Assembly: GCA_045656905.1 (NCBI GenBank)
Contig: JAZOSA010000039.1
Coordinates: 417 to 64,416, forward strand
Source of the DNA: Bacteroidales bacterium
GTDB taxonomy: Bacteria > Bacteroidota > Bacteroidia > Bacteroidales > F082
Length of the DNA stretch: 64,000 nt
Direction of reading: 5' to 3'
Part shown: one piece after another, positions 1,428 through 45,961 of the stretch
Numbering within the stretch: the stretch's first letter is position 1
Layout of the letters: every line of letters starts with the position of its first letter
Translations under genes and position numbers: made by a program
The notes under the pieces: generated by a model
Told to the model about the DNA's origin: nothing
Databases searched by the model: none
The model's input: only the letters and a program-made list of their open reading frames with translations

Positions 1428-4400
1428 ATGAAACTAGATACATTCATCAAGCGTCCGGTCCTCTCGACAGTTATTTCCATCATAATAATTGTTCTTGGTC
1501 TCATCGGACTTCTGACGCTTCCTATTTCACAATATCCCGACATCGCGCCTCCGACAGTGGAAGTCAAGGCGTCGTATCAAGGTGCTAATGCTCAAACTGT
1601 AGTCAACAGTGTCATCGCGCCTCTCGAAGAAGAAATCAACGGCGTTGAGAATATGACATATATGACATCAACGGCGACCAACACCGGCGATGCAACCATT
1701 ACCGTTTATTTCAAACCGGGCAGCGACCCTGACATGGCAGCTGTCAACGTACAAAACCGCGTCACTAAAGCACAGGGGTTCCTCCCTTCCGAAGTGACAA
1801 AAGCCGGCGTGACGACAAGCAAGAAGCAGTCAAGTATCTTACTCGCTTTCACAGTATATAGCGAAAACGATAAATACGACCAAGAGTTTATTTATAACTA
1901 CTTGAAGATTAACGTTATCCCTCAGATTAAACGTATCGGTGGCGTCGGTGACGCTCAGGTCCTCGGCGCAGAATACTCGATGAGAATATGGCTGAAACCT
2001 GATGTTATGGCGCAATACGGATTGATGCCTAAAGACGTCGTCGCGGCTCTTAACGAACAGAATATCGAAGCAGCACCAGGTCAGCTCGGCGAGAATTCAC
2101 AAAACGTGACATTCCAATATATGCTGAAATACAAAGGAAGACTCGCGACTCCAGAAGAATTCGGCGACATCGTCATAAGAGCAAACGAAAGCGGCGAGAT
2201 ATTGAGACTCAAGACCATCGCTGACGTGGAACTCGGTTCTTTGACTTATGCCATCGACACTCGCTCGCAAGGTCATCAAGGTATAACAGCGATGATTTAT
2301 CAGTCTGCAGGTTCTAATGCAACGCAGATTATCAATGAAGTCAAGGCTTTGCTCGAAGCAGAGAAAAGAGACTTCCCTCCAGGAATCACATACGACATTT
2401 TGTTGGACTCCAACGACTTCTTGTTCGCTTCGATTCATGAGGTCATCAAGACTTTATTAGAAGCGTTCTTGCTCGTCTTCTTGGTGGTATTCATTTTCTT
2501 GCAGGACTTCCGCTCTACGCTTATCCCTGCCATTGCGATACCTGTCGCTTTGATTGGTACTTTCTTTATGTTGAAAATAATGGGATTCAGTATAAACCTT
2601 CTTACATTATGCGCTATGGTTCTTGCCATCGCCATTGTCGTTGACGACGCCATTGTGGTGGTGGAAGCGGTCCATGAGAAACTGGAGCGAGGGGCTAAGT
2701 CGGCGAAGGCTGCTTCCATAGAAGCGATGAATGAGATTTCAGGTGCTTTGATATCAATCACTTTGGTTATGATGGCGGTGTTTATCCCTGTCAGCTTCAT
2801 GTCGGGCATCACCGGAACATTCTACAGACAATTCGGTCTCACGATGGCGGTGTCAATAGCGTTCTCGGCTATCAACGCTCTTACATTATCACCAGCATTA
2901 TGTGCGTTATTCCTTAAACCTCACGACAATCACGATGGCGAGAAGAAAGGACTTTTGAAGAGATTCTTCATTGCATTCAATACTGCTTACGACGTCACCG
3001 TCAAGAAATATAGCAAAGGCGTAAGTTTCTTCGTTAAAAACAAGACTTTGTCTATAGGCGCAGTCTTGGCAGGCGCAGCATTATTGTTCTATCTTATGGG
3101 AACTACGCCAACGGGATTGGTTCCTAACGAAGACACCGGTACCATCTTCGTGACTGTCGACATGCCAGCTGGAACATCATTGGATAAGACAAAAGACGCG
3201 ATGGCGAAGATTGAGAAATTGGTTGAAAACACGCCAGCTATCAAGACACATACCGCTATTTCCGGTTTCAGTATTTTGAGTGGCGCGATGGGAAGTTCTT
3301 ACGGAACATTTATCTGTAAGCTCCACGACTGGGAAGAACGCGACGAGACAGAAAGCGCCGACGCTCTCAATATGAAGCTTATGATGCAGGCTAGAGAACT
3401 CGTGAAGGAAGGTCGTGTCATCACATTCTCAATGCCTATGATTCCTGGATTCAGCGTGTCGTCAGGCTTTGAATTCAACCTTCAGGACAAGACAGGAGGT
3501 TCAATAGAGTCGTTCTACGCAGTGGCACAAGAGTTTATCGCTCGTCTCAGCGAACGCCCTGAGATAGCACAGGCAAACACCAGTTTCAACCCTACATATC
3601 CTCAATATATGGTGAACATCGACGCTGCAAAATGCAAGCAGGCAGGCGTTTCTCCATCAGATATTCTCACGACATTACAAGGTTACTTCGGCGGTATCTA
3701 CGCTTCTAACTTCAACCGCTTCGGCAAGTTGTATCGTGTTATGGTTCAGGCACGCCCTGAGTTGAGAATCGACAAGGAATCTCTTAATAATATCAAGATA
3801 AGAAACGGAAATGAAATGGCACCGATAACTCAATTCATTGAACTTGAAAGAGTATATGGTCCAGATAACATCAAGAGATTCAATTTGTTCACTTCTATAT
3901 TGGTCAATGGTAATCCAGCTCCAGGATATAGTTCAGGAGAAGCAATCAAAGCTATTGAAGAGACTGCAGAACAATACTTGCCACAAGGCTACGCTTATGA
4001 ATATTCAGGTATGACGAGAGAAGAACAAGGTCAGAGCGGCGGACTCGGAATGATTCTCATTATCTGTATCATGTTCGTTTACTTGCTGTTAAGTGCTCAA
4101 TATGAAAGTTACATACTTCCATTGGTCGTTATTCTTTCAATACCATTCGGTCTTGCAGGAACATTCATCTTTGCGAGAATGATGGGCATCGATAACAATA
4201 TCTATTTACAAATCGGTCTTATCATGCTTATCGGATTGTTGGCAAAGAACGCCATTTTGATTACGGAATTCGCTGTCGCGAGACGTGAGTCAGGAATGGG
4301 CATCGTAGATGCTGCCATCGATGCTGCTTGCGCTCGTCTTCGTCCAATCCTTATGACATCACTCGCGATGATTATCGGTCTTCTTCCAATGATGTTCGCT

Positions 4401-4550
4401 CATGGAGTAGGAGCAAACGGTAACAGCGCATTAGGTTCTGGTGCCATCGGCGGTATGCTGATTGGTATGGTTTGCCAGATCTTCATTGTTCCGTCATTGT
4501 TCGTGATATTCCAAGCAATACAAGAGAAGTTTAGACGAGTTGAAAGTTGA
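1428..4550 (+). CDS. RND efflux transporter permease (AcrB/HAE1 family), operon 1
   Basis: 1040 aa; N-terminus FIKRPVLSTVISIIIIVLG; 12-TM/2 large-loop layout; conserved AIVVDDAIVVVE motif in TM4. Confidence 0.95.
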   Translation: MKLDTFIKRPVLSTVISIIIIVLGLIGLLTLPISQYPDIAPPTVEVKASYQGANAQTVVNSVIAPLEEEINGVENMTYMTSTATNTGDATITVYFKPGSDPDMAAVNVQNRVTKAQGFLPSEVTKAGVTTSKKQSSILLAFTVYSENDKYDQEFIYNYLKINVIPQIKRIGGVGDAQVLGAEYSMRIWLKPDVMAQYGLMPKDVVAALNEQNIEAAPGQLGENSQNVTFQYMLKYKGRLATPEEFGDIVIRANESGEILRLKTIADVELGSLTYAIDTRSQGHQGITAMIYQSAGSNATQIINEVKALLEAEKRDFPPGITYDILLDSNDFLFASIHEVIKTLLEAFLLVFLVVFIFLQDFRSTLIPAIAIPVALIGTFFMLKIMGFSINLLTLCAMVLAIAIVVDDAIVVVEAVHEKLERGAKSAKAASIEAMNEISGALISITLVMMAVFIPVSFMSGITGTFYRQFGLTMAVSIAFSAINALTLSPALCALFLKPHDNHDGEKKGLLKRFFIAFNTAYDVTVKKYSKGVSFFVKNKTLSIGAVLAGAALLFYLMGTTPTGLVPNEDTGTIFVTVDMPAGTSLDKTKDAMAKIEKLVENTPAIKTHTAISGFSILSGAMGSSYGTFICKLHDWEERDETESADALNMKLMMQARELVKEGRVITFSMPMIPGFSVSSGFEFNLQDKTGGSIESFYAVAQEFIARLSERPEIAQANTSFNPTYPQYMVNIDAAKCKQAGVSPSDILTTLQGYFGGIYASNFNRFGKLYRVMVQARPELRIDKESLNNIKIRNGNEMAPITQFIELERVYGPDNIKRFNLFTSILVNGNPAPGYSSGEAIKAIEETAEQYLPQGYAYEYSGMTREEQGQSGGLGMILIICIMFVYLLLSAQYESYILPLVVILSIPFGLAGTFIFARMMGIDNNIYLQIGLIMLIGLLAKNAILITEFAVARRESGMGIVDAAIDAACARLRPILMTSLAMIIGLLPMMFAHGVGANGNSALGSGAIGGMLIGMVCQIFIVPSLFVIFQAIQEKFRRVES

Positions 4551-4633
4551 AAACGGAAAATTGAAAATTGAAAAATGGATACAAAGACAGTTGTCTGTTG
4601 ACAGTTGTCCGTTGACTTTAAAAATATAAAACG

Positions 4634-5998
4634 ATGAAAAAGATAATATATATCACAATATGCGCTTTCGTGTTGAGCAGCTGTAACATTTACAGGCAAT
4701 ACGAGCGTCCGGAGGTAGCTGCCCCAGATTCATATCGCCTGCCAGAAGATATGACGTCTGCCGACACTACTTCGATAGCAGATCTCAGCTGGACTGATAT
4801 TTACGCAGATACAAACCTACGCACATTAATTAATTACGGTCTTGAAAATAACACCGACCTTTTGGTGGCGATGGAGAGAGTGAAAGAAGCGCAGGCTGCT
4901 CTTAAGTCGGCAAAGTTGTCGTTCCTTCCTTCAGTCTCTCTCAATCCACAAGGCGGTTTGTCGTATGCCGGCGGCGCCACATCATGGAGTTATGATGCAT
5001 CGGTATCAGCAAGTTGGGAGATAGATTTGTTCGGCAAATTATTAAACAACAAGAGAAAAGCGCAAGTCGTTCTTTTACAGAATGAAGAATACAAGCAAGC
5101 AGTGAGAACGCAGCTCATTGCTACGATAGCTGATTTTTATTTCAACCTTCTGGCGTTAGATAAACAGTTGAACATCTATACTATGACAGAGCAGAACTGG
5201 GCTGTAAGCGTCGAGACCATCAAGGCGATGAAAGAAGGCGGCATGACTAACGAAGCTGCTGTAGTTCAATACGAGGCGTATCACGCATCTATCGCTGCTG
5301 CGATTCCTGATATCAAAGCTGCGATTATGAAACAGGAAAACGCTTTGTCTGCATTGCTCGGCGATTATCCTGATGTCATCGCTAGAGGCAAACTTGATGA
5401 GCAGAAAGTCGAGTTCGACATTCAGGCAGGCGTGCCGTTGCAACTCTTGGCAAATCGTCCTGACGTGAAAAGCGCAGAATATAAATTAGCTTCGATGTAT
5501 TATAACACCAATGAGGCACGTGCTGCGTTTTATCCAAATATCGTCATCGGCGGAAGTGCGGGATGGAGCAACCTCATAGGCGGAAAGATCGTCAATCCAG
5601 GTCAGTTCCTTGCGAGTGCGCTCGCTTCGTTGACACAACCTATCTTCTATAGAGGCGCGAACAAGGCGCGACTAGAAATAGCCAAGGCGCAGGAAGAAGA
5701 AGCGAAGCTGCAGTTCAGACAAAGCTTGTTAAACGCAAGTATGGAAGTCAGCAACGCTTTGATAACATACGACGCTGAAGTGAAAAAAGAAGTGGAACGC
5801 GACAGACAAATAGAAGCGTTATATAAAGCAGTTGAATATACAAATGAGTTGTTGAAACTCGGCACATCGACATATCTTGAAGTGTTGGACGCACAGCAGT
5901 CGCTGCTCAATGCTTTGCTGTCGAAGACCGACGATCAGTTGAATAAACTCAATGCAGTGACGTCGTTATATCACGCCCTCGGTGGTGGAAGGGAATAA
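4634..5998 (+). CDS. Outer membrane efflux lipoprotein (TolC/NodT family), operon 1
   Basis: 454 aa; lipobox VLSSC; paired OEP repeats; C-terminal LYHALGGG motif typical of NodT-family factors. Confidence 0.9.
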   Translation: MKKIIYITICAFVLSSCNIYRQYERPEVAAPDSYRLPEDMTSADTTSIADLSWTDIYADTNLRTLINYGLENNTDLLVAMERVKEAQAALKSAKLSFLPSVSLNPQGGLSYAGGATSWSYDASVSASWEIDLFGKLLNNKRKAQVVLLQNEEYKQAVRTQLIATIADFYFNLLALDKQLNIYTMTEQNWAVSVETIKAMKEGGMTNEAAVVQYEAYHASIAAAIPDIKAAIMKQENALSALLGDYPDVIARGKLDEQKVEFDIQAGVPLQLLANRPDVKSAEYKLASMYYNTNEARAAFYPNIVIGGSAGWSNLIGGKIVNPGQFLASALASLTQPIFYRGANKARLEIAKAQEEEAKLQFRQSLLNASMEVSNALITYDAEVKKEVERDRQIEALYKAVEYTNELLKLGTSTYLEVLDAQQSLLNALLSKTDDQLNKLNAVTSLYHALGGGRE

Positions 5999-6716: not shown

Positions 6717-7628
6717 ATGATAACAATAAACAACCTAGACTTCAGCTACAAGAATGTGGCGGTTTTCAAAAATATCAGCCTCGAATTTAAAGAAGGCAAC
6801 GTCTATGGTCTTCTCGGCGAAAACGGCGTGGGAAAGACAACGCTCCTGAAAATCATCAGCGGACTTCAATTCCCAAATGAAGGAACTTGTAAGGTAGATG
6901 ATTTCATTCCTTCAGATAGAAATCCTTATTTCTTGCAGAATATATTTTACCTTCCGGAAGAAGTCATAACAGAAGATACTACACCTGAGAAATTCATCAA
7001 TAAATTAGGTGTGTTTTATCCACGTTACGACCATTCTTATTTCTTAAATCTGATGAAAGAATTGGAGGTAGATGCCAATAAGAAATTCAATGCGATGTCG
7101 TACGGACAGAAGAAGAAATCGTTGTTAGCATGTGCGTTGTCGCTTCGTACTGATTATCTGCTTCTTGATGAGCCGACAAACGGACTTGATATTCCATCGA
7201 AGGCTTTGTTTAGAAAAGTGATATTGCAACATGGAAGCTCCACGGATCACACGGATTTGCACGTATCTGATTATGGTCAAAATAATACGAGCGATACTCG
7301 AGATACGTGGAGCTACAATCCTACAATAATCATTTCCACACATCAGGTGAAGGACGTGGAAAATCTCATCGACCCGATAGTGATTTTAGAACATGATGAA
7401 GTGCTTCTTAATTCAACATTTGAAGAGATTTCTCAACGACTTTATTTTGAATATGGTGCAGAGAAATCAGATGAGGCTCTCTATTCTGAAATGATGCCCG
7501 GCGGTTACATCAACGTGCTTCCAAATACTTTTAACATGGAAAGCAAAGTCAATGTTGAGGCACTGTTTAATGCTGTGAGATGTAATAAGAAGAAGATTAG
7601 AGAAATCTTTGTAAAAGTTGAAAATTGA
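6717..7628 (+). CDS. ABC transporter ATP-binding protein (YtrB-like) carrying a 25-aa in-frame repeat-derived insertion
   Basis: Walker A GENGVGKTT, signature MSYGQKKK, Walker B LLLDEPTNGLD, H-loop IIISTHQ. The Walker B-to-H-loop spacing is 57 aa instead of the usual ~32. Confidence 0.9.
   Translation: MITINNLDFSYKNVAVFKNISLEFKEGNVYGLLGENGVGKTTLLKIISGLQFPNEGTCKVDDFIPSDRNPYFLQNIFYLPEEVITEDTTPEKFINKLGVFYPRYDHSYFLNLMKELEVDANKKFNAMSYGQKKKSLLACALSLRTDYLLLDEPTNGLDIPSKALFRKVILQHGSSTDHTDLHVSDYGQNNTSDTRDTWSYNPTIIISTHQVKDVENLIDPIVILEHDEVLLNSTFEEISQRLYFEYGAEKSDEALYSEMMPGGYINVLPNTFNMESKVNVEALFNAVRCNKKKIREIFVKVEN
7238..7312. mobile_element. MITE/REP-like palindromic element (CTCCACG...CGTGGAG family) inserted in frame in the ABC ATPase gene
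   Basis: 75 bp with the same termini, length and internal blocks (GTATC.CGAGTATC, ATACGTGCA) as the four copies at 38708-39443. In this copy the terminal inverted repeat extends to AGCTCCACG/CGTGGAGCT (7236-7314). Confidence 0.8.
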
Positions 7629-28922: not shown

Positions 28923-29038
28923 TGGGCGTTCCGGCAAAGCCGTCGGGCTTTCCGCTATATCTTTTTCCGCTACGCTCCAAAAGGATGCCGCTTCAATCCC
29001 TAACGCACTGGCGGCGATTAGACATCAGTGGTCGGTAG
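28923..29038 (+). repeat. GC-rich interspersed repeat, copy B (internally deleted)
   Basis: It keeps both ends of the 165-bp element (TGGGCGTTCC...GGGCTTTCCGCTATATCTTT and AAGGATGCCGCTTCAATCCCTAACGC). It also keeps the ACTGGCGGCGAT tail seen after copy C. Confidence 0.8.
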
Positions 29039-37074: not shown

Positions 37075-38541
37075 TTACAAGGAACCTCCTAAGGCTGTAT
37101 ATAATCTTACCAAGGCGAGCAGTGCTGAATTCCAAGCGTTTACCAAGTAATTCTGGTCGGAGAGAACGGTACGTTGAGCATCGAGTACGTTGGTGAAAGT
37201 GCCGAGACCTCTTTTGTATAAGTCGATGGAGAGTTCTAAAGTCTTGTTACCTTGTTCCACGACTTGTTGTCCCATTTCGATGGTTTTTAAAGCATTAGCA
37301 TAATTGCTCATTTCTGTTTCCACTTCTTGAATGGCATTCAAAATCACATTGTTATAATTGTCGATACTTTCGTCAAGGGCGATTTCTGCCATCTGAACAG
37401 ATTTCCTGACTTCCATTCCAGAAAATAGATTCCACGAGATAGATGGTGTCAGTTGAAACATCATACTTTCATTATTGAAAAATTTCTCTAAATCGTGAGA
37501 GAGATAACCGAAACTGCCAGTTATCTTGAATTTTGGATAGAAGTCGGCTTTAGTAGCGCCGATGCTAGCAGCTTGAGCCTCGATATTTAACTCGGCTTGT
37601 CGTACGTCAGGACGATTTCTTATCACATCGGCAGGAATACCGACATTGACGATATGTCTGATACTTGGGAGTTCGCTAATATCATTGAAACTGTCTTTTA
37701 AATTAGAAGGATATGTCCCTAATAGAATAGCCAAGTTGTTGACACATTGTGTGATGTAAGCGTCTAATCTTGGAATCGTGGCTAAGGTGTTATAATAAAC
37801 AGACTTAGCCTGAGACACGTCTAGTTGTGTTCCGAGACCAGACTCGTAACGCGCGATGGTGATGTCAAGTATGTTTTTCTCTGAAGCGATGTTCTGATTT
37901 GCAACGATGAGCTGCTGCTGATAAGAACGCAGGTTGAAATACACAGTAGCGACTTGAGCGCATAGATTTAAAATCGCATCTTGATAGGAAGCTTCCGTCG
38001 CAAGATAGGATTTCTTGTTAGATCTGACAATGTTTCTGTTTTTGCCAAAGACATCGATTTCCCAACTCGCATTGAGACCAGCGTTTAGGTAGCCATTGGT
38101 GCGATATTGGTCGCTGCTTGTCTCTTCGTAATAATTCAAACTTGTTTCGCTCAAATCGTATTGAGCGTCAAGACTTAAACTTGGATAAAACGCAGATTTA
38201 GACTGCTGGTAAAGTAACCTTGATTTTTCTAATGTTGCTTCGATGGATTGCAGGTTGTAGTTGTTGCTTAAAGCGACAGCCATTAAAGAATCCAAGGTGG
38301 AGTCTTTGAATCTTGTCCACCAGTCGTAATCCGTGATGTCGTTGTTAAGATAGATGGTGTCGATCTGCCATTTCTCAGGGATGGAAATCTCCAAATCTAT
38401 TTCTTTTTGGGCAGAACTTCGTAGGGGAAAAAGAAATAATAAGACTAATGATAAAAGTCCAAAGACTAGAGATGTGGACGAAGATTGTTGACCGTTGTCT
38501 GTTGACTGTTGACTTTTCATAATTCTGTTTTTTCTCATCAA
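37075..38541 (-). CDS. Outer membrane efflux protein (TolC family), operon 3
   Basis: 488 aa; OEP repeats; C-terminal LYTALGG. The start is uncertain (ATG at 38541 or 38520), and residues KSQQSTDNGQQSS are encoded by a GTCAACA word repeat. Confidence 0.85.
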   Translation of the reverse strand: MMRKNRIMKSQQSTDNGQQSSSTSLVFGLLSLVLLFLFPLRSSAQKEIDLEISIPEKWQIDTIYLNNDITDYDWWTRFKDSTLDSLMAVALSNNYNLQSIEATLEKSRLLYQQSKSAFYPSLSLDAQYDLSETSLNYYEETSSDQYRTNGYLNAGLNASWEIDVFGKNRNIVRSNKKSYLATEASYQDAILNLCAQVATVYFNLRSYQQQLIVANQNIASEKNILDITIARYESGLGTQLDVSQAKSVYYNTLATIPRLDAYITQCVNNLAILLGTYPSNLKDSFNDISELPSIRHIVNVGIPADVIRNRPDVRQAELNIEAQAASIGATKADFYPKFKITGSFGYLSHDLEKFFNNESMMFQLTPSISWNLFSGMEVRKSVQMAEIALDESIDNYNNVILNAIQEVETEMSNYANALKTIEMGQQVVEQGNKTLELSIDLYKRGLGTFTNVLDAQRTVLSDQNYLVNAWNSALLALVRLYTALGGSL

Positions 38542-38665: not shown

Positions 38666-38696
38666 TTGACATTTAATGCTTATAATAGTATCTTTG
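38666..38696 (+). promoter_or_regulatory. Promoter of the GxxExxY gene (-33 TTGACA 38666-38671, -7 TATCTTTG 38689-38696)
   Basis: Consensus match with 17-nt spacing. It ends 11 nt before repeat copy 1. Confidence 0.5.
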
Positions 38697-38707
38697 TAAA
38701 GAAAAAC

Positions 38708-38784
38708 CTCCACGTATCACGAGTATCACACGAATGTTTTGAGGTTGTGAAAAAAATACGTGCAGATACGAGAGATTCGTGGAG
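38708..38784. repeat. CTCCACG...CGTGGAG palindromic repeat, copy 1 (77 bp)
   Basis: CTCCACGTATCACGAGTATCACACGAATG...GTGCAGATACGAGAGATTCGTGGAG. The arms are imperfect reverse complements. Confidence 0.95.
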
Positions 38785-38820
38785 AAAGGTGAAGAATACG
38801 TGGAATTAAAAACCAAAGAT

Positions 38821-39189
38821 ATGATTATTGATAAATTGATTTATGAAACCATTGGTGCCTCAATGGAAGTGTACAACACACTGGGACCAGGTTTGTTGGA
38901 AAGTGTTTATGAGAAAGCTCTGTTTCATGAACTTTCTTTAAGAGATTTATATGTGGAATCGCATATCCCTGTAGAAATAATATACAAAGAAGAGGTGATA
39001 AATTCAGAACTTCGTTTGGATCTTATTGTTGAAGATACATTGATTGTGGAGTTGAAATCGGTTGAGACACTGCAACCGGTTCATTTTAAGCAGTTAAGAA
39101 CATATATGAGATTGCTTGATAAACCTGTGGGTTTGTTGGTAAATTTCAATGTTAGTGATTTTAAAAATGGTTATCGAGTTCTTAGATGA
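38821..39189 (+). CDS. GxxExxY protein (PD-(D/E)XK nuclease-fold, PDDEXK_3-like)
   Basis: 122 aa from the ATG at 38821. It has GLLESVY (= GxxExxY) and the D...ELK motif (RLDLIVEDTLIVELK). The GTG start at 38779 in the ORF track lies inside repeat copy 1. Confidence 0.85.
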   Translation: MIIDKLIYETIGASMEVYNTLGPGLLESVYEKALFHELSLRDLYVESHIPVEIIYKEEVINSELRLDLIVEDTLIVELKSVETLQPVHFKQLRTYMRLLDKPVGLLVNFNVSDFKNGYRVLR

Positions 39190-39192
39190 TAT

Positions 39193-39270
39193 CTCCACGT
39201 ATCACGAGTATCACACGAATGTTTTGAGGTTGTGAAAAAAAATACGTGCAGATACGAGAGATTCGTGGAG
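39193..39270. repeat. CTCCACG...CGTGGAG palindromic repeat, copy 2 (78 bp)
   Basis: Starts 3 nt after the stop codon at 39187-39189 and is nearly identical to copy 1. Confidence 0.95.
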
Positions 39271-39281
39271 AAAAGAAAAAC

Positions 39282-39357
39282 CTCCACGTATCACGAGTAT
39301 CACACGAATGTTTTGAGGTTATGAAAAAATATGTGCAGATACGAGATGTCCGTGGAG
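39282..39357. repeat. CTCCACG...CGTGGAG palindromic repeat, copy 3 (76 bp)
   Basis: In tandem with copy 2, separated by the 11-nt linker AAAAGAAAAAC. Confidence 0.95.
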
Positions 39358-39368
39358 AAAAGAAAAAC

Positions 39369-39443
39369 CTCCACGGATCACGAGTATCACACGAATGATT
39401 TTATGTGGTGAAAAATCCGTGCAGATACGAGAGATTCGTGGAG
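39369..39443. repeat. CTCCACG...CGTGGAG palindromic repeat, copy 4 (75 bp)
   Basis: In tandem with copy 3 through the same 11-nt linker. It begins CTCCACGGATCAC, like the copy in the ABC gene. Confidence 0.95.
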
Positions 39444-39465
39444 AAAGGAGAAATATACGAGAAAA

Positions 39466-41019
39466 CTAAATCTCACCGTATTGTTCTTGGAGTTTCTTTA
39501 ACTTCTCCTTCAATTCCTTTGTTATTTCTTCGGTCCCTTCGTGTCCGTAGATATTATTGATTTCGTTTTTATCGTGGCGAAGGTCGTAGAGTTCCCAGAT
39601 GTCATCTTCATAGAAATGAATGAGTTTAAGTGTATCGGTGCGTATTCCAAGATGTGGTTTTACGTTATGTTCGTCAGGGAATTCGTAGTAATGGTAATAA
39701 ATTCCATCGCGATTTGCTTCGTATTTTTCACCTTTTAACAAAGGTAAGAAAGAACATCCGTGTATGTCATCAGGGATTTCTACACCTGCCAGTTCTAGGA
39801 AGGTAGGAGCGTAGTCGATGTTCTGAACCATCTCGTTTATCTCACCTTTCACGCCGCCAGGATAACGTATTAATAAAGGTGTCCTGAATGACTCTTCGTA
39901 CATCCATCGTTTATCGAACCATCCGTGTTCTCCCATGTAGAAACCTTGGTCAGATGTGTAGACGACAAGAGTGTTTTCTAAAAGTCCTTCATCTTCAAGA
40001 TAATCCAAGACGCGACCAACGTTACGGTCAATAGATGTTATCACGCGAAGATAGTCGCGCATGTATTGCTGATATTTCCATTTGTCGAGTTCTTCTCCAG
40101 AAAGGTTTGATTCTTTGAACTTTTCAATGACTATATCATAATGAGCGTCCCATGCTTTCTTCTGTTCGGGATTCATATTGTTATACATCCAACGTCCCCA
40201 ACCTTCCAAGTCGGGGCGACTGTGGATAAGACTGTCTTTATCTGCTAGTTTAAGGTCGTAGACCAAATCCATGTCTTTGCTTATCGACATCTTGTTTTCC
40301 TTTGCTGCGAGGCGATCTTCGTAGTTGTCGTAGAATGTCTCAGGTAATGGAAATTCGCTGTCTTTGAAAAGTTTCAAGTCGCAGGTGTCGGGCATCCATG
40401 TGCGATGTGGTGCCTTGTGATGTAGTAAGAGACAAAATGGTTTTTCTTTATTACGTTCGTTTTCCAGCCATTCCAGAGCGACGTCTGTTGTGATGTTAGT
40501 GGTGTAGCCTTCACGTTGTATCTTTTCGCCATTGCGGATGAAGGTAGGGTTGTAGTAATCGCCTTGACCTATTAATATATCCCAATAGTTGAATCCAGTA
40601 GGGTCGGAGTTGAGATGCCATTTGCCTATGATGGCAGTCTCGTATTTGTCTTGAATGAGTTTCGGAAAAGTCTGCTGACTTCCGTCGAAGGTACAGCTGT
40701 TGTCTGTGAAACCATTGGCGAGGCTGTGTTTTCCGGTAAGAAGACAAGCCCGGGAAGGCGCGCTGATGGAGTTCGCTACGAAACTGTTGTTGAAAAGCGC
40801 GCCTTCGTTGGCGATTCGGTCTATATTAGGAGTGCGGATAAACGAAGTGTCGTACGCGCTGATGGTCTGATACGAATGGTCGTCAGACATGATGAATAAG
40901 ATATTCATCGGTTTCTGCGGCTTGTCGTTACACGCAGTGAGTATCGGCAATAACGCTAAAACCTTAAAACCTACACGACAATGAAACAACTTATAATCTT
41001 GTATTCCCATATTACTCAT
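39466..41019 (-). CDS. Sulfatase (Ser-type formylglycine site)
   Basis: 517 aa; NILFIMSDDHSY and the SAPSRACLLTGK signature ((C/S)xPxR with Ser); GKWHL. Confidence 0.9.
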   Translation of the reverse strand: MSNMGIQDYKLFHCRVGFKVLALLPILTACNDKPQKPMNILFIMSDDHSYQTISAYDTSFIRTPNIDRIANEGALFNNSFVANSISAPSRACLLTGKHSLANGFTDNSCTFDGSQQTFPKLIQDKYETAIIGKWHLNSDPTGFNYWDILIGQGDYYNPTFIRNGEKIQREGYTTNITTDVALEWLENERNKEKPFCLLLHHKAPHRTWMPDTCDLKLFKDSEFPLPETFYDNYEDRLAAKENKMSISKDMDLVYDLKLADKDSLIHSRPDLEGWGRWMYNNMNPEQKKAWDAHYDIVIEKFKESNLSGEELDKWKYQQYMRDYLRVITSIDRNVGRVLDYLEDEGLLENTLVVYTSDQGFYMGEHGWFDKRWMYEESFRTPLLIRYPGGVKGEINEMVQNIDYAPTFLELAGVEIPDDIHGCSFLPLLKGEKYEANRDGIYYHYYEFPDEHNVKPHLGIRTDTLKLIHFYEDDIWELYDLRHDKNEINNIYGHEGTEEITKELKEKLKKLQEQYGEI

Positions 41020-41281: not shown

Positions 41282-44200
41282 ATGAAATTTTTTACAAAAC
41301 AATCAAGTAAAGCAGTGGCAAAGAAATTTGCATTTCTGTTTTTGACAATGTTGGCATTTGGTTTTACCGCCAACGCTCAGATTCCAACATTTAATGAAAT
41401 CTTAGAACGTTATTACAATCCTCAAAATCTCGTTGTTAAGGCAACAGCACAAACACCTCCTTACGGACAACAATTTAGCAACTATACCTTTGAAGAATGG
41501 GAAACAGTGAAGGATTCTAGTGAGGAACCTAAAAACTGGAACTCATTTATGACTGCTGATGGCGGTAATGGAGGATTTTTAGTTGGAGATTTGAAAAAGT
41601 ATTTGCAAGATCAACTTTCAAAGTCAACAGAAAAACGTCCTGGTACAGCAGGTTCCTATAGTGCTCGTGTTTTCTCTAAAAGTAGAAACCTTATAATTAC
41701 GACTATAGTTGCTAATGGTAATATGACCAATGGTCAAATTTATGCAGGTAGTACAACCGCAAATAATGATGCTAATTATAATTTTACAAAAAGATCAGAT
41801 GCTAATTTTAATACACAATTTACAACCATACCAGACTCATTGACAGTATGGGTCGCTTTTAAACCTAAAGATGCTAGCAAAGGTAATGCTAGGATTACTA
41901 CAACAATCCATGGTGATACAGATTTGAAACAGCTTGCTAAGAGTGGTGATTCACCAGCAAATATGGTTTGTGCAACTGCAAACGTAGAAATCGCAGCTAC
42001 TAGTACATCGGCTGTCGTTTGGAAAAGAATGTCAATTCCTTTTACAAAAGGTTCTAATAATGACCCAAGATACATCCTTACAACGTTTAATACAAATAAA
42101 ACTCCAGGCGGTGGTTCTAATGGCGATGAACTTTATGTTGATGACATCTGTCTTATCTATAATCCAACATTAAATATGGAGTTGTTGGCACAGACAGAAT
42201 TCGATGGTACAAATCTTAATATAGAAGTTCCTTTCACTTTGGATGGTTCAATGTCTGTTTACAATATTAACAAATCAGACAATGAAGTCATTGCTCAGCT
42301 TTCAGATGCTAGCGGCAGCTTCGCAAATCCTATTGAATTAGGTCGTGTTACAACAAACGTAAATGGTACAATAAACGGCGTTCTTCCTGCTGATTTGAAA
42401 AACGGCACATATAAAGTAAGAGTCGTTTCTACAAACTATCCAATGGTTTCAAACGAAAGAGATATCGTTATCAATTTCCCTTACGTTCCAGTTCCACAAG
42501 TTGAAATCGCTTTGGGTGATGTCTTGGCTAAATCAGCAAGCGCTACATTCACTCCAAATGTAGACTGTGCAAATTATTATTTCGTAATCGCTCCTGCAAC
42601 ACAAAGTGTCGACGCAGCATACGTAAAAGCTAACGGTCAAGCAAAATCTGGATCATTCACAGCAACATTCGAAAACTTAACATCTTACACAGAATATAAA
42701 GTCTACGCACTTCCTCTTACTTCAGACGGCGTTGAAGGCGAAATGGCATCAGCAACACTTAAGACTGTCGCTCTTGTTCCTCAAATCACAATCGCAAAAG
42801 GTAATGTCGCAACAAAATCAATTGAAGCAACATTCACTCCAAATGCCGACTGCGCTCAATATTACTACTTGATTGCTAATGCAACAGAAACAGTAGACGC
42901 AGCATACGTCAAGGCAAATGGTGAAAATCAAACTGCAACATTTACAAAGACATTTGAAAACTTAATCTCTAATACAGATTACGTAATCTACGCTCTTCCT
43001 GTTGATGTCGAAGGTAAAGAAGGAACATTGGCAACACTCGCTGTTAAAACACAAGCTTTCGCTCCTCAAGTTGAAATAACAAGAGATAACTTCACAGCTA
43101 AGACAATAACAGCAACATTCACTCCAAATGGCGACTGCGCTCAATATTACTTCTTGGTTGCTCTCGCTACAGAAACAGTTGACGCTGCTTATATCAAAGC
43201 AAACGGTGAAAATCAAACTGAAACATATACAACAACATTTGAAGGTTTGACATCAAATACTGCTTATGTAATCTACGCTCTTCCAGTTGACGTTGACGGT
43301 TTCAATGGTGAAATCAAGTCTGTCACAGTTACAACAAAAGCTCTCGCACCACAAATTGAAATCGCACAAGGTGAAGTCGCTACAAAATCAGTAGAAGCAA
43401 CATTCACTCCAAATGCCGACTGCGTTGAATATTACTTCTTGATTGCAAAAGCAACAGAAACAGTTGACGCAGCATACGTTAAAGAAAATGGTGAAGTTAA
43501 AACTGAAACTTTCGCAACAACATTTGAAGACTTGATCTCTAACACAGATTACGTGATCTACGCACTCCCAATCGACGTAGAAGGCACTGAAGGCGCATTG
43601 GCAACACTTGCTGTCAAAACTCAAGCTTTCGTTCCTCAAGTTGACATCGAAAGAGGTAACTTCTCAGCAAAATCAATCACTGCTACATTCACTCCAAACG
43701 CAGACTGCGTTGAATATTACTTCTTGATTTCTACAGAAACAGTAGATGCAGAATATATCAAGGCAAATGGTGAAAAACAAACTGAATTATATACAACAAC
43801 ATTTGAAGACTTGACATCAAACACAGCATATACAATCTATGCTCTTCCAGTTGACGCTGATGGATTCTATGGCGAAGTTAAGACTATCACTGTTACAACA
43901 AAAGCACTTGCTCCACAAGTTGAAATCACAAAAGGCGAAGTCTTGACATATTCAATTTCAGCATCATTCGCACCAAATGCAGATTGCGATCAATATTATT
44001 TCTTGATTGCTGATGCAACAGAAATAGTAGATGCAGAATACATCATGGCAAATGGTGAACTTAAATCAGAATCTTATGCTCATACATGGGAAAATCTGAT
44101 GTCAAATACAAACTATACAATCTATGCTCTCCCAATCGACATAGAAGGTAATGCAGGTGCAGTTAATACATTAGTTGTAAAGACAAAGGTAGAAGCAGGC

Positions 44201-45961
44201 GTTTCAGAAGTTGATATCGATGTTGAAAAATTAAATGAAACAACAGTTACAATCACTGCAACACCAAACGAAAACACTATTTTATATCACTACATCATTG
44301 TGACAAAAGCAGAAGCTGATGCAATGGGTGAAGATGCTTTGATGCAAAAACTCATTGAAAATGAAAATTACCTCGACAGCGTTGCAGACGTATATACAAT
44401 GACAGTTGAATCAAATGTTGCATATTACGTAGTTGCACAAGGTAAGAATAGAGACGGTGAATGGGGCGAAGTTACAAAATATGAATTCGTTGTAGCAGGT
44501 CCAGCAGCAGTCGCTATCGCAGTTGAAAAAGTTACAGAAACAACAGTTACAGTAACAGCAACACCAAATGAAAATACAGTATCATATGAATATATCGTTA
44601 TAGAAAAAGCAGAAGCTGACGCAATGGATGAAGATGCATTGTTGCAAAAACTTGCAGAAGCAAATGAATTCACAGGCGTTGACGTATATACATATACTGT
44701 TAAATCAAATGTTGAATACTACGTTATTGCACAAGCTAAGAACGCTGATGGAAGATTAAGCGAAATCACAAAAGTTGAGTTTGTTGTCGCTGGTCCTGCA
44801 ACAGTAACAGTCGAAGTTATGGAATTGTCAGAAACATCAATTTTTGTTATGACACCAAACGAAGATGCAGTTTCTTATAAGTATATCGTTATAACAAAGG
44901 CAGAAGCAGACGAAATGAGTGAAGATGCTTTGATGGCAAAACTCGATGAAAACGAAGAATACCTTGAAGGTGTTAAGATTAGAGAATTGGTGGTTGAGCC
45001 AAATGTAGCATACTATATCGTGGCAAGAGCTAAGAACGCTGATGATATGTGGGGTGCAGTTACAATAGTTGAATATATATTTGAAGAGGCTGGTCCTGCA
45101 GCAGTAGCAATCGAGGTTAAAGAAGTTTCAGAAACATCAGTTGAAGTTACAGCAACACCAAACGAAAATACAGTTTCTTATAAGTATATCGTGATAACAA
45201 AAGCAGAAGCTGACGCAATGGATGCAGAAACTTTGATGCAAAAACTTGAATCTGCAAACGAACTTGATGCAGTTGACGTATGGACATATACAGTTGAATC
45301 AAATGTAGAATACTATGTCATAGCACAAGGTAAGAACGCTGACGGCAACTTTGGCGAAATGACAAAGGTTGAATTCGTTGTCAGAGTCGCTGGTGAAGCT
45401 GCATTGACAGTAACTGTTGAAGAATTTACAGAAACATCAGTTTTGGTTATAACACCAAACGAAAATACTGTGGCTTATCGTTATATCATCATTGAAAAAG
45501 CAGTCGCTGATTCAATCGGTGAAGATGCTGTAATGCAAAGACTCAATGAAAACGAGGATTATCTTGAAGACGTTACAGTGGAAGAGTTGATGGTAGAACC
45601 AAATGTTGAATATTATGTTATTGCACAAGCTAAGAATGCTGATGACGTCTGGGGTGAAGTGGTAAAAGTTGAATTCATCGTTATAGATGAAAATACTGGC
45701 GAAGATGATGGCGATAGTATCTCTGAACTTGAAACTGTATTCGAAATATATCCAAACCCAGCAAGTGAATATGTAAGAATAAAATCAAACAGCGATATTG
45801 AAAGCTTGATGATCTTCTCAATCGACGGCAAACTTGTTTATTCAGAAGACGTAAATCAAGAAGAAACAATGATTGATGTAACAGCATTTGCAAAAGGTTC
45901 TTACATCGTAAGAATGCTTTCAAACGACGAGTTCGTTATCAGAAGAATCGTTGTTAAATGA
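41282..45961 (+). CDS. Large T9SS-secreted surface protein with two tandem-repeat domain arrays
   Basis: 1559 aa with a signal peptide and an N-terminal region resembling PCMD-type carbohydrate-associated domains (weak call). It has 6 x ~95-aa and 5 x ~100-aa repeats. The C-terminal T9SS sorting domain reads ...FEIYPNPASEYVRIKS...GSYIVRML...RIVVK. Confidence 0.85.
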   Translation: MKFFTKQSSKAVAKKFAFLFLTMLAFGFTANAQIPTFNEILERYYNPQNLVVKATAQTPPYGQQFSNYTFEEWETVKDSSEEPKNWNSFMTADGGNGGFLVGDLKKYLQDQLSKSTEKRPGTAGSYSARVFSKSRNLIITTIVANGNMTNGQIYAGSTTANNDANYNFTKRSDANFNTQFTTIPDSLTVWVAFKPKDASKGNARITTTIHGDTDLKQLAKSGDSPANMVCATANVEIAATSTSAVVWKRMSIPFTKGSNNDPRYILTTFNTNKTPGGGSNGDELYVDDICLIYNPTLNMELLAQTEFDGTNLNIEVPFTLDGSMSVYNINKSDNEVIAQLSDASGSFANPIELGRVTTNVNGTINGVLPADLKNGTYKVRVVSTNYPMVSNERDIVINFPYVPVPQVEIALGDVLAKSASATFTPNVDCANYYFVIAPATQSVDAAYVKANGQAKSGSFTATFENLTSYTEYKVYALPLTSDGVEGEMASATLKTVALVPQITIAKGNVATKSIEATFTPNADCAQYYYLIANATETVDAAYVKANGENQTATFTKTFENLISNTDYVIYALPVDVEGKEGTLATLAVKTQAFAPQVEITRDNFTAKTITATFTPNGDCAQYYFLVALATETVDAAYIKANGENQTETYTTTFEGLTSNTAYVIYALPVDVDGFNGEIKSVTVTTKALAPQIEIAQGEVATKSVEATFTPNADCVEYYFLIAKATETVDAAYVKENGEVKTETFATTFEDLISNTDYVIYALPIDVEGTEGALATLAVKTQAFVPQVDIERGNFSAKSITATFTPNADCVEYYFLISTETVDAEYIKANGEKQTELYTTTFEDLTSNTAYTIYALPVDADGFYGEVKTITVTTKALAPQVEITKGEVLTYSISASFAPNADCDQYYFLIADATEIVDAEYIMANGELKSESYAHTWENLMSNTNYTIYALPIDIEGNAGAVNTLVVKTKVEAGVSEVDIDVEKLNETTVTITATPNENTILYHYIIVTKAEADAMGEDALMQKLIENENYLDSVADVYTMTVESNVAYYVVAQGKNRDGEWGEVTKYEFVVAGPAAVAIAVEKVTETTVTVTATPNENTVSYEYIVIEKAEADAMDEDALLQKLAEANEFTGVDVYTYTVKSNVEYYVIAQAKNADGRLSEITKVEFVVAGPATVTVEVMELSETSIFVMTPNEDAVSYKYIVITKAEADEMSEDALMAKLDENEEYLEGVKIRELVVEPNVAYYIVARAKNADDMWGAVTIVEYIFEEAGPAAVAIEVKEVSETSVEVTATPNENTVSYKYIVITKAEADAMDAETLMQKLESANELDAVDVWTYTVESNVEYYVIAQGKNADGNFGEMTKVEFVVRVAGEAALTVTVEEFTETSVLVITPNENTVAYRYIIIEKAVADSIGEDAVMQRLNENEDYLEDVTVEELMVEPNVEYYVIAQAKNADDVWGEVVKVEFIVIDENTGEDDGDSISELETVFEIYPNPASEYVRIKSNSDIESLMIFSIDGKLVYSEDVNQEETMIDVTAFAKGSYIVRMLSNDEFVIRRIVVK
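42494..44194 (+). repeat. Tandem coding repeat family A: 6 units of 285 bp (one of 279 bp)
   Basis: Units start at 42494, 42779, 43064, 43349, 43634 and 43913, each PQ[VI]EI...ATFTPN.DC..YYF.I...VDA.Y.KANG...YALP.D..G. Confidence 0.95.
44195..45685 (+). repeat. Tandem coding repeat family B: 5 units of 294-300 bp
   Basis: Units start at 44195, 44495, 44789, 45089 and 45389, each AG.A.V...V.E..ETSV.VT.TPNEN.V.Y.YI.I.KAEAD.M.EDAL...NV.YYV.AQ.KNADG. Confidence 0.95.

Follow-up and report, generated by a model that had tools for sequence, protein, structure and literature searches.

The 64-kb window analysed here, a stretch of 64,000 nt from contig JAZOSA010000039.1 of a Bacteroidales bacterium, contains a small gene of the GxxExxY family whose product, of 122 aa, carries the motifs of PD-(D/E)XK nucleases. 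The gene is bordered by four copies of a palindromic repeat, one in front and three behind, and lies between genes for a TolC-like protein and a sulfatase (Table 1). A preliminary description, made from the sequence alone, had compared this layout with REPtrons, in which a single gene at a fixed site is bordered by cognate repetitive extragenic palindromic (REP) units. The link between gene and repeat (called family A below) is real, recurrent and specific: it is found again in orthologous loci with varying numbers of repeats, in paralogues that occupy the gaps of sugar operons and, with other arm sequences built on the same plan, in distant subfamilies. Its interpretation as a selfish module is weighed in the last section.

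Table 1. Features of the GxxExxY locus and of the fifth repeat copy in the window (ORF, open reading frame)
Feature	Position	Strand	Evidence
TolC-like outer-membrane efflux protein, upstream neighbour, conserved synteny anchor	37075..38541	-	ORF listing; PF02321 OEP in orthologous loci
Promoter-like site: TTGACA, 17 nt, TATCTT, overlapping TATCTTTG (TAnnTTTG-type -7 box)	38666..38696	+	Best regional match
Repeat copy 1, complete (left arm, loop, right arm), part of the gene's 5' leader	38708..38784	+	Direct reading, arm probes, nhmmer, folding
36-nt leader from copy 1 to ATG; right-arm-like remnant ATACGTGGA at 38796-38804, then A-rich	38785..38820	+	Direct reading
GxxExxY / PDDEXK_3 gene, 122 aa	38821..39189	+	Pfam and NCBIfam matches, invariant residues, structure model, pN/pS
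Repeat copy 2, begins 3 nt past the stop codon	39193..39270	+	Direct reading, arm probes, nhmmer
Linker AAAAGAAAAAC between copies 2 and 3	39271..39281	+	Direct reading
Repeat copy 3	39282..39357	+	Direct reading, arm probes, nhmmer
Linker AAAAGAAAAAC between copies 3 and 4	39358..39368	+	Direct reading
Repeat copy 4, final unit of the array with a period of 87 nt	39369..39443	+	Direct reading, arm probes, nhmmer, Tandem Repeats Finder
Sulfatase, downstream neighbour, conserved synteny anchor	39466..41019	-	ORF listing; PF00884 in orthologous loci
Diverged fifth repeat copy, 75 nt = 25 codons, in frame in ABC ATPase ORF 6717-7628	7238..7312	-	nhmmer, E 9e-9

The locus in the window and its orthologues

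The four copies around the gene (75-78 nt) all start with CTCCACG and end with CGTGGAG. A 77-nt element consists of two arms in inverted orientation, with about three subrepeats of 7-10 nt of the type CACG..TAT in each. Probes made from the left arm (29 nt) and from the right arm (25 nt) have four matches each in the window, where shuffled sequences lead to an expectation of zero, and copies 2-4 are recovered by Tandem Repeats Finder as an array of 3.0 copies with a period of 87 nt (39193-39453). The 36-nt leader that follows copy 1 is 77% similar to the tail behind copy 4. On re-reading the sequence, the coordinates, termini and linkers given for the four copies in the preliminary description were all correct, and so was the tight spacing it reported, with 36 nt between copy 1 and the ATG (38821) and with copy 2 starting 3 nt after the TGA (39187-39189). 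A CRISPR array (clustered regularly interspaced short palindromic repeats) was considered and rejected because the units of 75-78 nt are parted by identical 11-nt linkers, not by unique spacers of similar length. The TTGACA promoter proposed upstream of copy 1 is the top promoter-like site of the region: TTGACA at 38666 together with TATCTTTG at 38689-38696 matches 10 of 12 promoter positions. The -7 motif of Bacteroidetes promoters is TAnnTTTG, and TATCTTTG is also compatible with it.

Contigs with close homologues share the gene order TolC-like gene, GxxExxY gene and sulfatase gene, and their repeat counts differ. Expressed as copies upstream + downstream, the window has 1 + 3, the locus whose protein is 98% identical (L049) has 1 + 4, and the loci at 84% identity (L003, L050-57) have 0 + 2, 0 + 4 or 0 + 8, with 0 + 2 in L003. 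At least 3 + 1 copies are found at 85% identity (L013), and 0 + 3 to 0 + 7 at 79% identity (L066-69). Overall, the orthologues at the TolC-sulfatase site have 0-3 or more copies upstream and 1-8 downstream. The distance from the stop codon to the first downstream copy is 2-4 nt in all of the orthologous loci, and the sequence of the promoter region is kept in L003 and L066 though their leaders hold no repeat. Many of the close-homologue contigs (P0002, P0046, P0083 and others) are just ~1 kb long and have many member sequences; this fits assemblies that break at tandem arrays, so the array counts taken from metagenome contigs may be under- or mis-assembled. Besides, one lineage has an IS1595-family DDE transposase gene between the TolC-like and GxxExxY genes (L003 4295-5233, same contig as L054 1536-2474).

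The repeat is also found apart from the gene, and it had been supposed from the fifth copy, reported within an ABC ATPase gene, that the family has moved. nhmmer finds this copy at the place reported, gene-less copies occur across many Bacteroidales genomes, and the repeat lies in frame within two different genes whose ORFs stay open. Orthologues of the ABC ATPase have, at the insertion point, the full insert of 25 aa, an insert made of the left arm alone, unrelated tandem repeats of 7 aa, or a short loop. The second case is the FnlB-like epimerase of L058, L059 and L063, in which an element lacking in L072 encodes an insert of 24 aa; the reading frame of both inserts yields STD...TRDT. The loop of the ABC ATPase that holds the insert (window ~7230-7320; P0121-P0240) separates the Walker B/D-loop region from the H-loop strand. 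In orthologues with 82-96% identity it is hypervariable: P0123, for instance, has tandem TDANENS heptapeptide repeats, and P0122 and P0126 retain a remnant of the left arm only. The use of this locus as an empty-site test was discarded for that reason, since the "empty" allele may itself be a remnant.

Recurrence of gene and repeat beyond the window

A family-A repeat lies no more than 60 nt from 66 of 111 GxxExxY genes and from 30 of 197 control ORFs that share their loci (odds ratio 8.2; p 2e-15 by Fisher's test, with loci that are not fully independent). The preliminary description had set an enrichment of this kind, genome-wide, as a test of its proposal. Flanking inverted repeats were scored by simply aligning the upstream 110 nt with the downstream 150 nt in reverse complement; 61 of 113 genes reach or exceed the 95th percentile of the controls, as do 34 of the 63 genes that are left when redundancy is removed at 90% identity. 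The folding energy of the flanks, on the other hand, does not discriminate GxxExxY genes from control ORFs (downstream p = 0.09).

The repeat was approached from the opposite side by scanning an 18-base pattern of the left arm over one genome per species (596 Gb). The scan gave 48 matching stretches, ~39 of them in assembled genomes of Bacteroidales (Prevotella, Alloprevotella and lineages from rumen and gut); by our estimate the other ~9, in unrelated phyla, are consistent with chance for 18 bases in 596 Gb. The ~39 repeat-selected loci hold mostly gene-less elements, single or in tandem and nearly always intergenic, and a GxxExxY gene is present in just two of them (L003 and L013), both syntenic with the window. 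The repeats tallied amount to 320 matches in 113 loci, with gene-less copies on many contigs of several assembled genomes of Bacteroidales. No clear rule was found for the orientation of gene-less elements relative to neighbouring genes, and repeats of the 18-base type were not found on viral contigs.

The low number of repeat-selected loci with the gene, together with the density of repeats in some capsule operons (4-6 per 8 kb), could be taken as a sign of coincidence, in which an abundant intergenic repeat gathers around a small accessory gene. This explanation is very improbable. It has to face the odds ratio against neighbouring ORFs, a nested architecture in which arms abut start and stop codons, unit boundaries that are arm termini, and different arms in different subfamilies; moreover, four of the five copies in the 64-kb window, which holds ~37 ORFs, flank one gene.

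Paralogues that are 71-76% identical to the window protein lie within operons for capsule and sugar-nucleotide synthesis. They are found between FnlB-like and FnlC-like genes (P0048, P0113) and between the genes for UDP-GlcNAc 2-epimerase and UDP-sugar dehydrogenase, the WecB-WecC gap (P0115), and the FnlA-FnlB gap hosts GxxExxY paralogues as well. These copies are promoterless, co-oriented with the host operon and bounded by the repeat family of the window, in one of two layouts. The first (L070-73, L074-76) consists of a left arm, ~10-20 nt, the gene from ATG to stop, a right arm, an A-rich stretch and the ATG of the next gene; in the second (L058-65), the ATG directly follows a left arm and the stop codon is followed by a full element. 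The FnlB-like epimerase of L070 and L073 (1373-2950) has 525 aa, versus 382 aa in L072, and contains an internal DUF559 (PF04480) endonuclease domain, possibly a second case of a mobile nuclease inserted into this operon.

The L063 operon has three GxxExxY genes, one in each of three successive gaps. Two of its copies are similar solely between CTCCACG and CGTGGAGACAAAAA (alignment A1), and therefore the duplicated unit ends at the element termini. Their arms are identical at 68 of 69 bases despite a synonymous divergence (pS) of 0.64 in the genes, and would therefore have been constrained or homogenised well past the neutral expectation. The third paralogue (4393-4785) is divergent, with 42% identity, and has a different palindrome of ~83 nt directly past its stop codon (TTATTAAACAACGAAA...TTTCGTTGTTAAATAA).

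Gene-bearing and gene-less forms are both bounded by inverted terminal repeats, and operons differ in which form fills the FnlA-FnlB gap: a gene-bearing unit, or else one or two elements without the gene. Such an alternation is what would be seen if the palindromes spread by other means and a free-standing GxxExxY nuclease behaved as a homing parasite, cutting gene-less elements and being copied into them by repair through the homology of the arms. In several contexts the gene does lie where a single element has its loop; homing nucleases of the PD-(D/E)XK type exist, and a nuclease with host repair would be mechanistically sufficient. Nevertheless, homing leaves the arrival of gene-less elements at new sites, coding regions included, unexplained; the arms supply only ~30 bp of homology, and loop insertion does not describe the layout of the window, where full elements stand on both sides of the gene. 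We consider homing unlikely, and it is the first in rank among the alternatives, followed by the carriage of the gene as a passenger, by a regulatory or RNA role and lastly by coincidence.

A total of 80 metagenome loci with homologues at 52-94% identity were examined. Genes at least 62% identical to the window protein nearly all bear family-A arms. More distant genes have other inverted repeats, with about three subrepeats of 9-10 nt per side in inverted orientation: TCGCACACAGATCTCACAGATCTCACGGAT ... ATCTGTGAGATCTGTGTGAGA in L149 and L150, CACAGATCT x3 in one subfamily, the CCGCCTGCGGCGG plus ATCTATAAATC type in L120, L123 and L124, and the AAATCTTGT type in L140 and L142. The polarity of the window, that is, right arm, gene, left arm, is found in L151, L152, L157 and L158. 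The same plan extends beyond Bacteroidales to Marinilabiliales and Flavobacterium, with GxxExxY genes examined in a set from Draconibacterium, Maribellus and Flavobacterium succinicans (L159/L163 2501-2884, L161 2501-2878). The Draconibacterium and Maribellus gene, placed between CACGCAGAT x3 and ATCTGCGT x3, interrupts an operon of the tricarboxylic acid cycle (aconitase, Iso_dh, GxxExxY, Iso_dh, citrate synthase), and that of Flavobacterium succinicans has triple subrepeats of its own and lies in the FnlB-FnlC gap that is also used in rumen Bacteroidales. About 35 genomic contexts are distinguished by tblastx of the flanks, and arm type tracks protein clade. No gene-less elements of the CACAGAT family were found in the loci examined.

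Some of the same operon gaps are used by genes of the 23S_rRNA_IVP family (TIGR02436, Avd-like), located at L097 1085-1471 and L107 5405-5818 and also in L007, L034, L157 and L158. Like the GxxExxY genes they are small ORFs flanked by arrays of short subrepeats, but they encode an unrelated fold, a four-helix bundle (PF05635), and their own subrepeats of 8-9 nt have other motifs (GAGTTGAGR ~15 times, AAGTTTAA, CCTCTTAAC). None of ten 23S_rRNA_IVP genes has family-A arms beside it, which supports the specificity of arm types to gene families. A second system of small ORF plus subrepeats may exist. This common, cassette-like niche hints at a further explanation, in which arms and gene form a cassette moved by a recombinase of the host or of another element, and the nuclease is cargo (for instance, for defence or addiction) that does not act on the arms; shared descent alone would then give the co-variation of gene and arms. 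We regard a passenger role as somewhat less likely than homing: no recombinase is consistently near the gene in the examined loci, the nuclease is the sole ORF inside the unit and gives no match when the window protein is searched with PADLOC, and the arm types are specific to the gene family.

Fold and conservation of the GxxExxY protein

The window protein matches PF13366 (E 6e-39, 133.5 bits, cut-off 22) and TIGR04256 (E 1e-39, 135.6 bits, cut-off 35), and no Pfam or NCBIfam match besides PDDEXK_3 and GxxExxY, nor any known transposase class, was found for the gene. The family has 14,736 representative clusters (50% identity) at E <= 0.001, some of whose members (P0241-P0243 and others) are proteins of 260-295 aa with two tandem GxxExxY domains. 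No function has been assigned to it (PMC3424549). G22, G24, E27, Y30, D67, E77, K79, Q91, Y95, N108 and F109 are invariant in family alignments. It follows from these alignments that the motifs described previously as intact are so: GxxExxY corresponds to G24-L-L-E27-S-V-Y30 and the catalytic motif to D67 and E77-L-K79 (E77-x-K79). A QxxxY motif (Q91, Y95) is also present behind the ExK strand and aligns to the QLQIY segment of 4ic1.

A search of the PDB with the sequence of the window protein gave no match, and the family profile gave only a weak one, to the Cas4 protein SSO0001 (4ic1; E 0.4), over the D...ExK...QxxxY core. An AlphaFold model built from a shallow alignment reached only pLDDT 55, and the model used here was obtained with a deeper alignment (pLDDT 95.5, pTM 0.88); its predicted order of elements is alpha-alpha-beta x5-alpha-beta-beta. 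Compared with the PDB by Foldseek, this model again has Cas4 4ic1 as its best match, which is weak (probability 0.99, E 0.016, TM 0.52-0.60), and nothing at E <= 0.001. Further matches are the Cas4-family protein ACE1, the nuclease domain of AdnAB, the R2 restriction-like endonuclease, lambda exonuclease and Hjc, and a search of PHROGs gave only a weak Cas4-like match. On the basis of the profile and Foldseek results, the GxxExxY protein is predicted to be a minimal nuclease domain of the Cas4/RecB type, with no close structural precedent. Cas4 proper was rejected: the protein has only 122 aa and no cysteines, and therefore lacks the iron-sulphur cluster for which Cas4 has a set of four cysteines, and its neighbours are the TolC-like and sulfatase genes, with no cas genes nearby.

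Purifying selection on the protein is strong. The ratio of non-synonymous to synonymous divergence (pN/pS) is 0.14-0.21 against orthologues and paralogues, and only 0.01 between the two similar L063 copies, which differ by 51 synonymous and 2 non-synonymous changes.

Interpretation and comparison with known systems

Each of the four copies is predicted to fold into one long imperfect hairpin on either strand (-20 to -29 kcal/mol; z-scores relative to shuffled sequences, -2.3 to -5.1), so that the long hairpin suggested in the preliminary description was recovered for all of them. Among 60 distinct copies, 82% of the arm positions are pairable, versus 17-57% with a slid register. Neither RNAalifold nor explicit counting of pairs over the 60 copies detected compensatory changes within individual copies, and 500 of 500 shuffles match the observed values. 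Hairpin folding is therefore without support from covariation, and the symmetry is a property of the family consensus. This symmetry fits a pair of inverted double-stranded binding sites no worse than it fits a folded single strand.

These results bear on the possibility that the arms are operators or RNA-processing sites, comparable to intervening sequences, by which the protein controls the expression of its own gene or of the host operon, the dispersed copies being a regulon or REP-like stabilisers of mRNA. The position of copy 1 within the 5' leader, the shared orientation of nested copies and host operon, and the stable folding of the elements are in line with such a role, and the PD-(D/E)XK fold includes RNA endonucleases; Foldseek also returns tRNA-splicing endonucleases (E ~0.03). 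We judge a regulatory or RNA role improbable. There is no covariation of RNA structure, and Rfam scans at gathering and permissive thresholds matched the repeat to nothing better than E 1.6. The in-frame copies keep the ORF open and so are read through, not excised, and copy-number turnover and duplication of the whole unit point to events at the level of DNA.

The explanation that we prefer, and to which we give roughly even chances, is that the locus is a selfish module, similar to a REPtron or an insertion sequence, composed of a small Cas4/RecB-type PD-(D/E)XK nuclease and its cognate inverted-repeat elements. The comparisons show that the gene moves and diversifies in company with its arms, and that the limits of the unit duplicated from one operon gap to another are precisely the arm termini. 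They also show gene-less elements that are scattered, arrayed in tandem or located in frame within genes, and selection on protein and arms alike. In the mechanism that we propose, the GxxExxY protein would bind the subrepeats, probably as a multimer, and would cut at or near the arms; cutting followed by host repair or recombination would then drive the copying, amplification or loss of units bounded by arms. Gene-less hairpins would be non-autonomous derivatives; a deletion between two left arms in direct orientation, or between short repeats rich in A, is one way in which they might arise. The copy in the window, which has its own promoter and a fixed TolC-sulfatase site, may represent a chromosomally resident version analogous to tnpA-REP, and the promoterless copies nested in operon gaps a version that is more similar to insertion sequences.

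Several points weigh against a selfish module. The action of the nuclease on the repeats is itself something that we infer, and strand transfer lies beyond a nuclease acting alone. The co-variation of gene and arms is also expected if other machinery moves the whole unit. No target-site duplication was evident at the 12 junctions inspected, among which there was no clean empty site. To these must be added the lack of compensatory changes and the rarity of the gene among repeat-selected loci, both described above, and the fact that most of 27 non-redundant distant homologues from viral contigs have no flanking inverted repeat; L165 and L167 have comparable arms, and the top scorer, L178, is a match of AT-rich low complexity.

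The comparison with REPtrons made in the preliminary description holds for the pairing of gene and palindrome, which is kept across unrelated contexts and subfamilies; the locus is not a strict REPtron because it has no HUH Y1 enzyme. In E. coli, REPtrons occupy a fixed chromosomal site, with one element upstream and a variable number downstream (PMC3333891), and the REPtron literature deals with HUH enzymes only (PMC3333891, PMC3733652). Both systems have a single gene at a fixed site with one cognate palindrome before it and a variable number behind it, and in both, different gene clades correspond to different repeat sequences. The repeats described here, mostly gene-less and often in tandem clusters, are found on many contigs of several assembled genomes of Bacteroidales, which would be comparable to the dispersal of REP units through a genome. 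However, the enzyme of REPtrons is an HUH Y1 transposase (RAYT, also named TnpA-REP), whereas a Cas4/RecB-like PD-(D/E)XK protein is predicted here. REP units are hairpins of 20-40 nt that carry a conserved tag, GTAG or CGTC (PMC3333891, PMC3733652), unlike the elements of 75-90 nt described here, with arms built of subrepeats and CTCCACG/CGTGGAG termini. Besides, gene-bearing units are present at several places in one operon, whereas REPtrons reportedly do not move as a unit.

Transposons with terminal inverted repeats and their miniature derivatives (MITEs, miniature inverted-repeat transposable elements) are also comparable, as terminal inverted repeats bound a single ORF or a short loop, with polymorphism of presence and copy number. 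The ends of Mu and Tn7 hold multiple repeated sites, and those of the GxxExxY units resemble them. The GxxExxY units differ in having no DDE, serine, tyrosine or HUH transposase, and in that their sole ORF is a putative nuclease of 122 aa, unable alone to join DNA; no target-site duplication was seen at the inspected junctions. The Rickettsia palindromic elements (RPEs), which insert in frame in proteins, are palindromes of ~75-100 nt that leave the host ORF open, as is the case here for the ABC ATPase and the FnlB-like epimerase; they belong to another phylum and have another sequence, and we know of no cognate gene for them.

Full-text searches of the literature found no paper that ties GxxExxY, PF13366 or PDDEXK_3 to repeats or mobility, in agreement with the earlier remark that no description of the association of gene and repeat was known. 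There is a substantial chance that the units constitute a new class of mobile element. A wider proposal, held more tentatively than that of a selfish module at this locus, is that GxxExxY (PF13366) proteins are the enzymes of an unrecognised class of prokaryotic selfish DNA, in which a gene for a Cas4-like nuclease of 120 aa is placed between inverted arms of three subrepeats, and whose gene-less derivatives are repeats similar to RPEs, REP units and bacterial interspersed mosaic elements (BIMEs) that reshape Bacteroidota genomes by occupying the gaps of operons, building tandem arrays and entering proteins in frame. If so, this would be the first function for the PF13366 family, and it would explain the small ORFs that recurrently interrupt conserved operons of Bacteroidota, the variable tandem arrays at which metagenome assemblies break and the in-frame peptide inserts of housekeeping proteins. 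The subrepeat arms are a candidate for the specific partner DNA of a very large family; if the nuclease acts on them, the combination of a repeat with its cognate enzyme would have been invented a second time, independently of REP/RAYT and with another catalytic fold. There might also be practical interest in a nuclease that is compact and sequence-specific and whose recognition site is modular and repeated.

Two other features of the window were recorded. A match to the Flavo-1 RNA motif (RF01705) is located at 28937-29020 on the minus strand, with 44.9 bits versus a gathering score of 42. Downstream of the sulfatase gene, a plus-strand ORF of 1559 aa (41282-45961) consists of many tandem modules of ~90-100 aa, and its homologues in related loci bear a Por_Secre_tail domain (type IX secretion).

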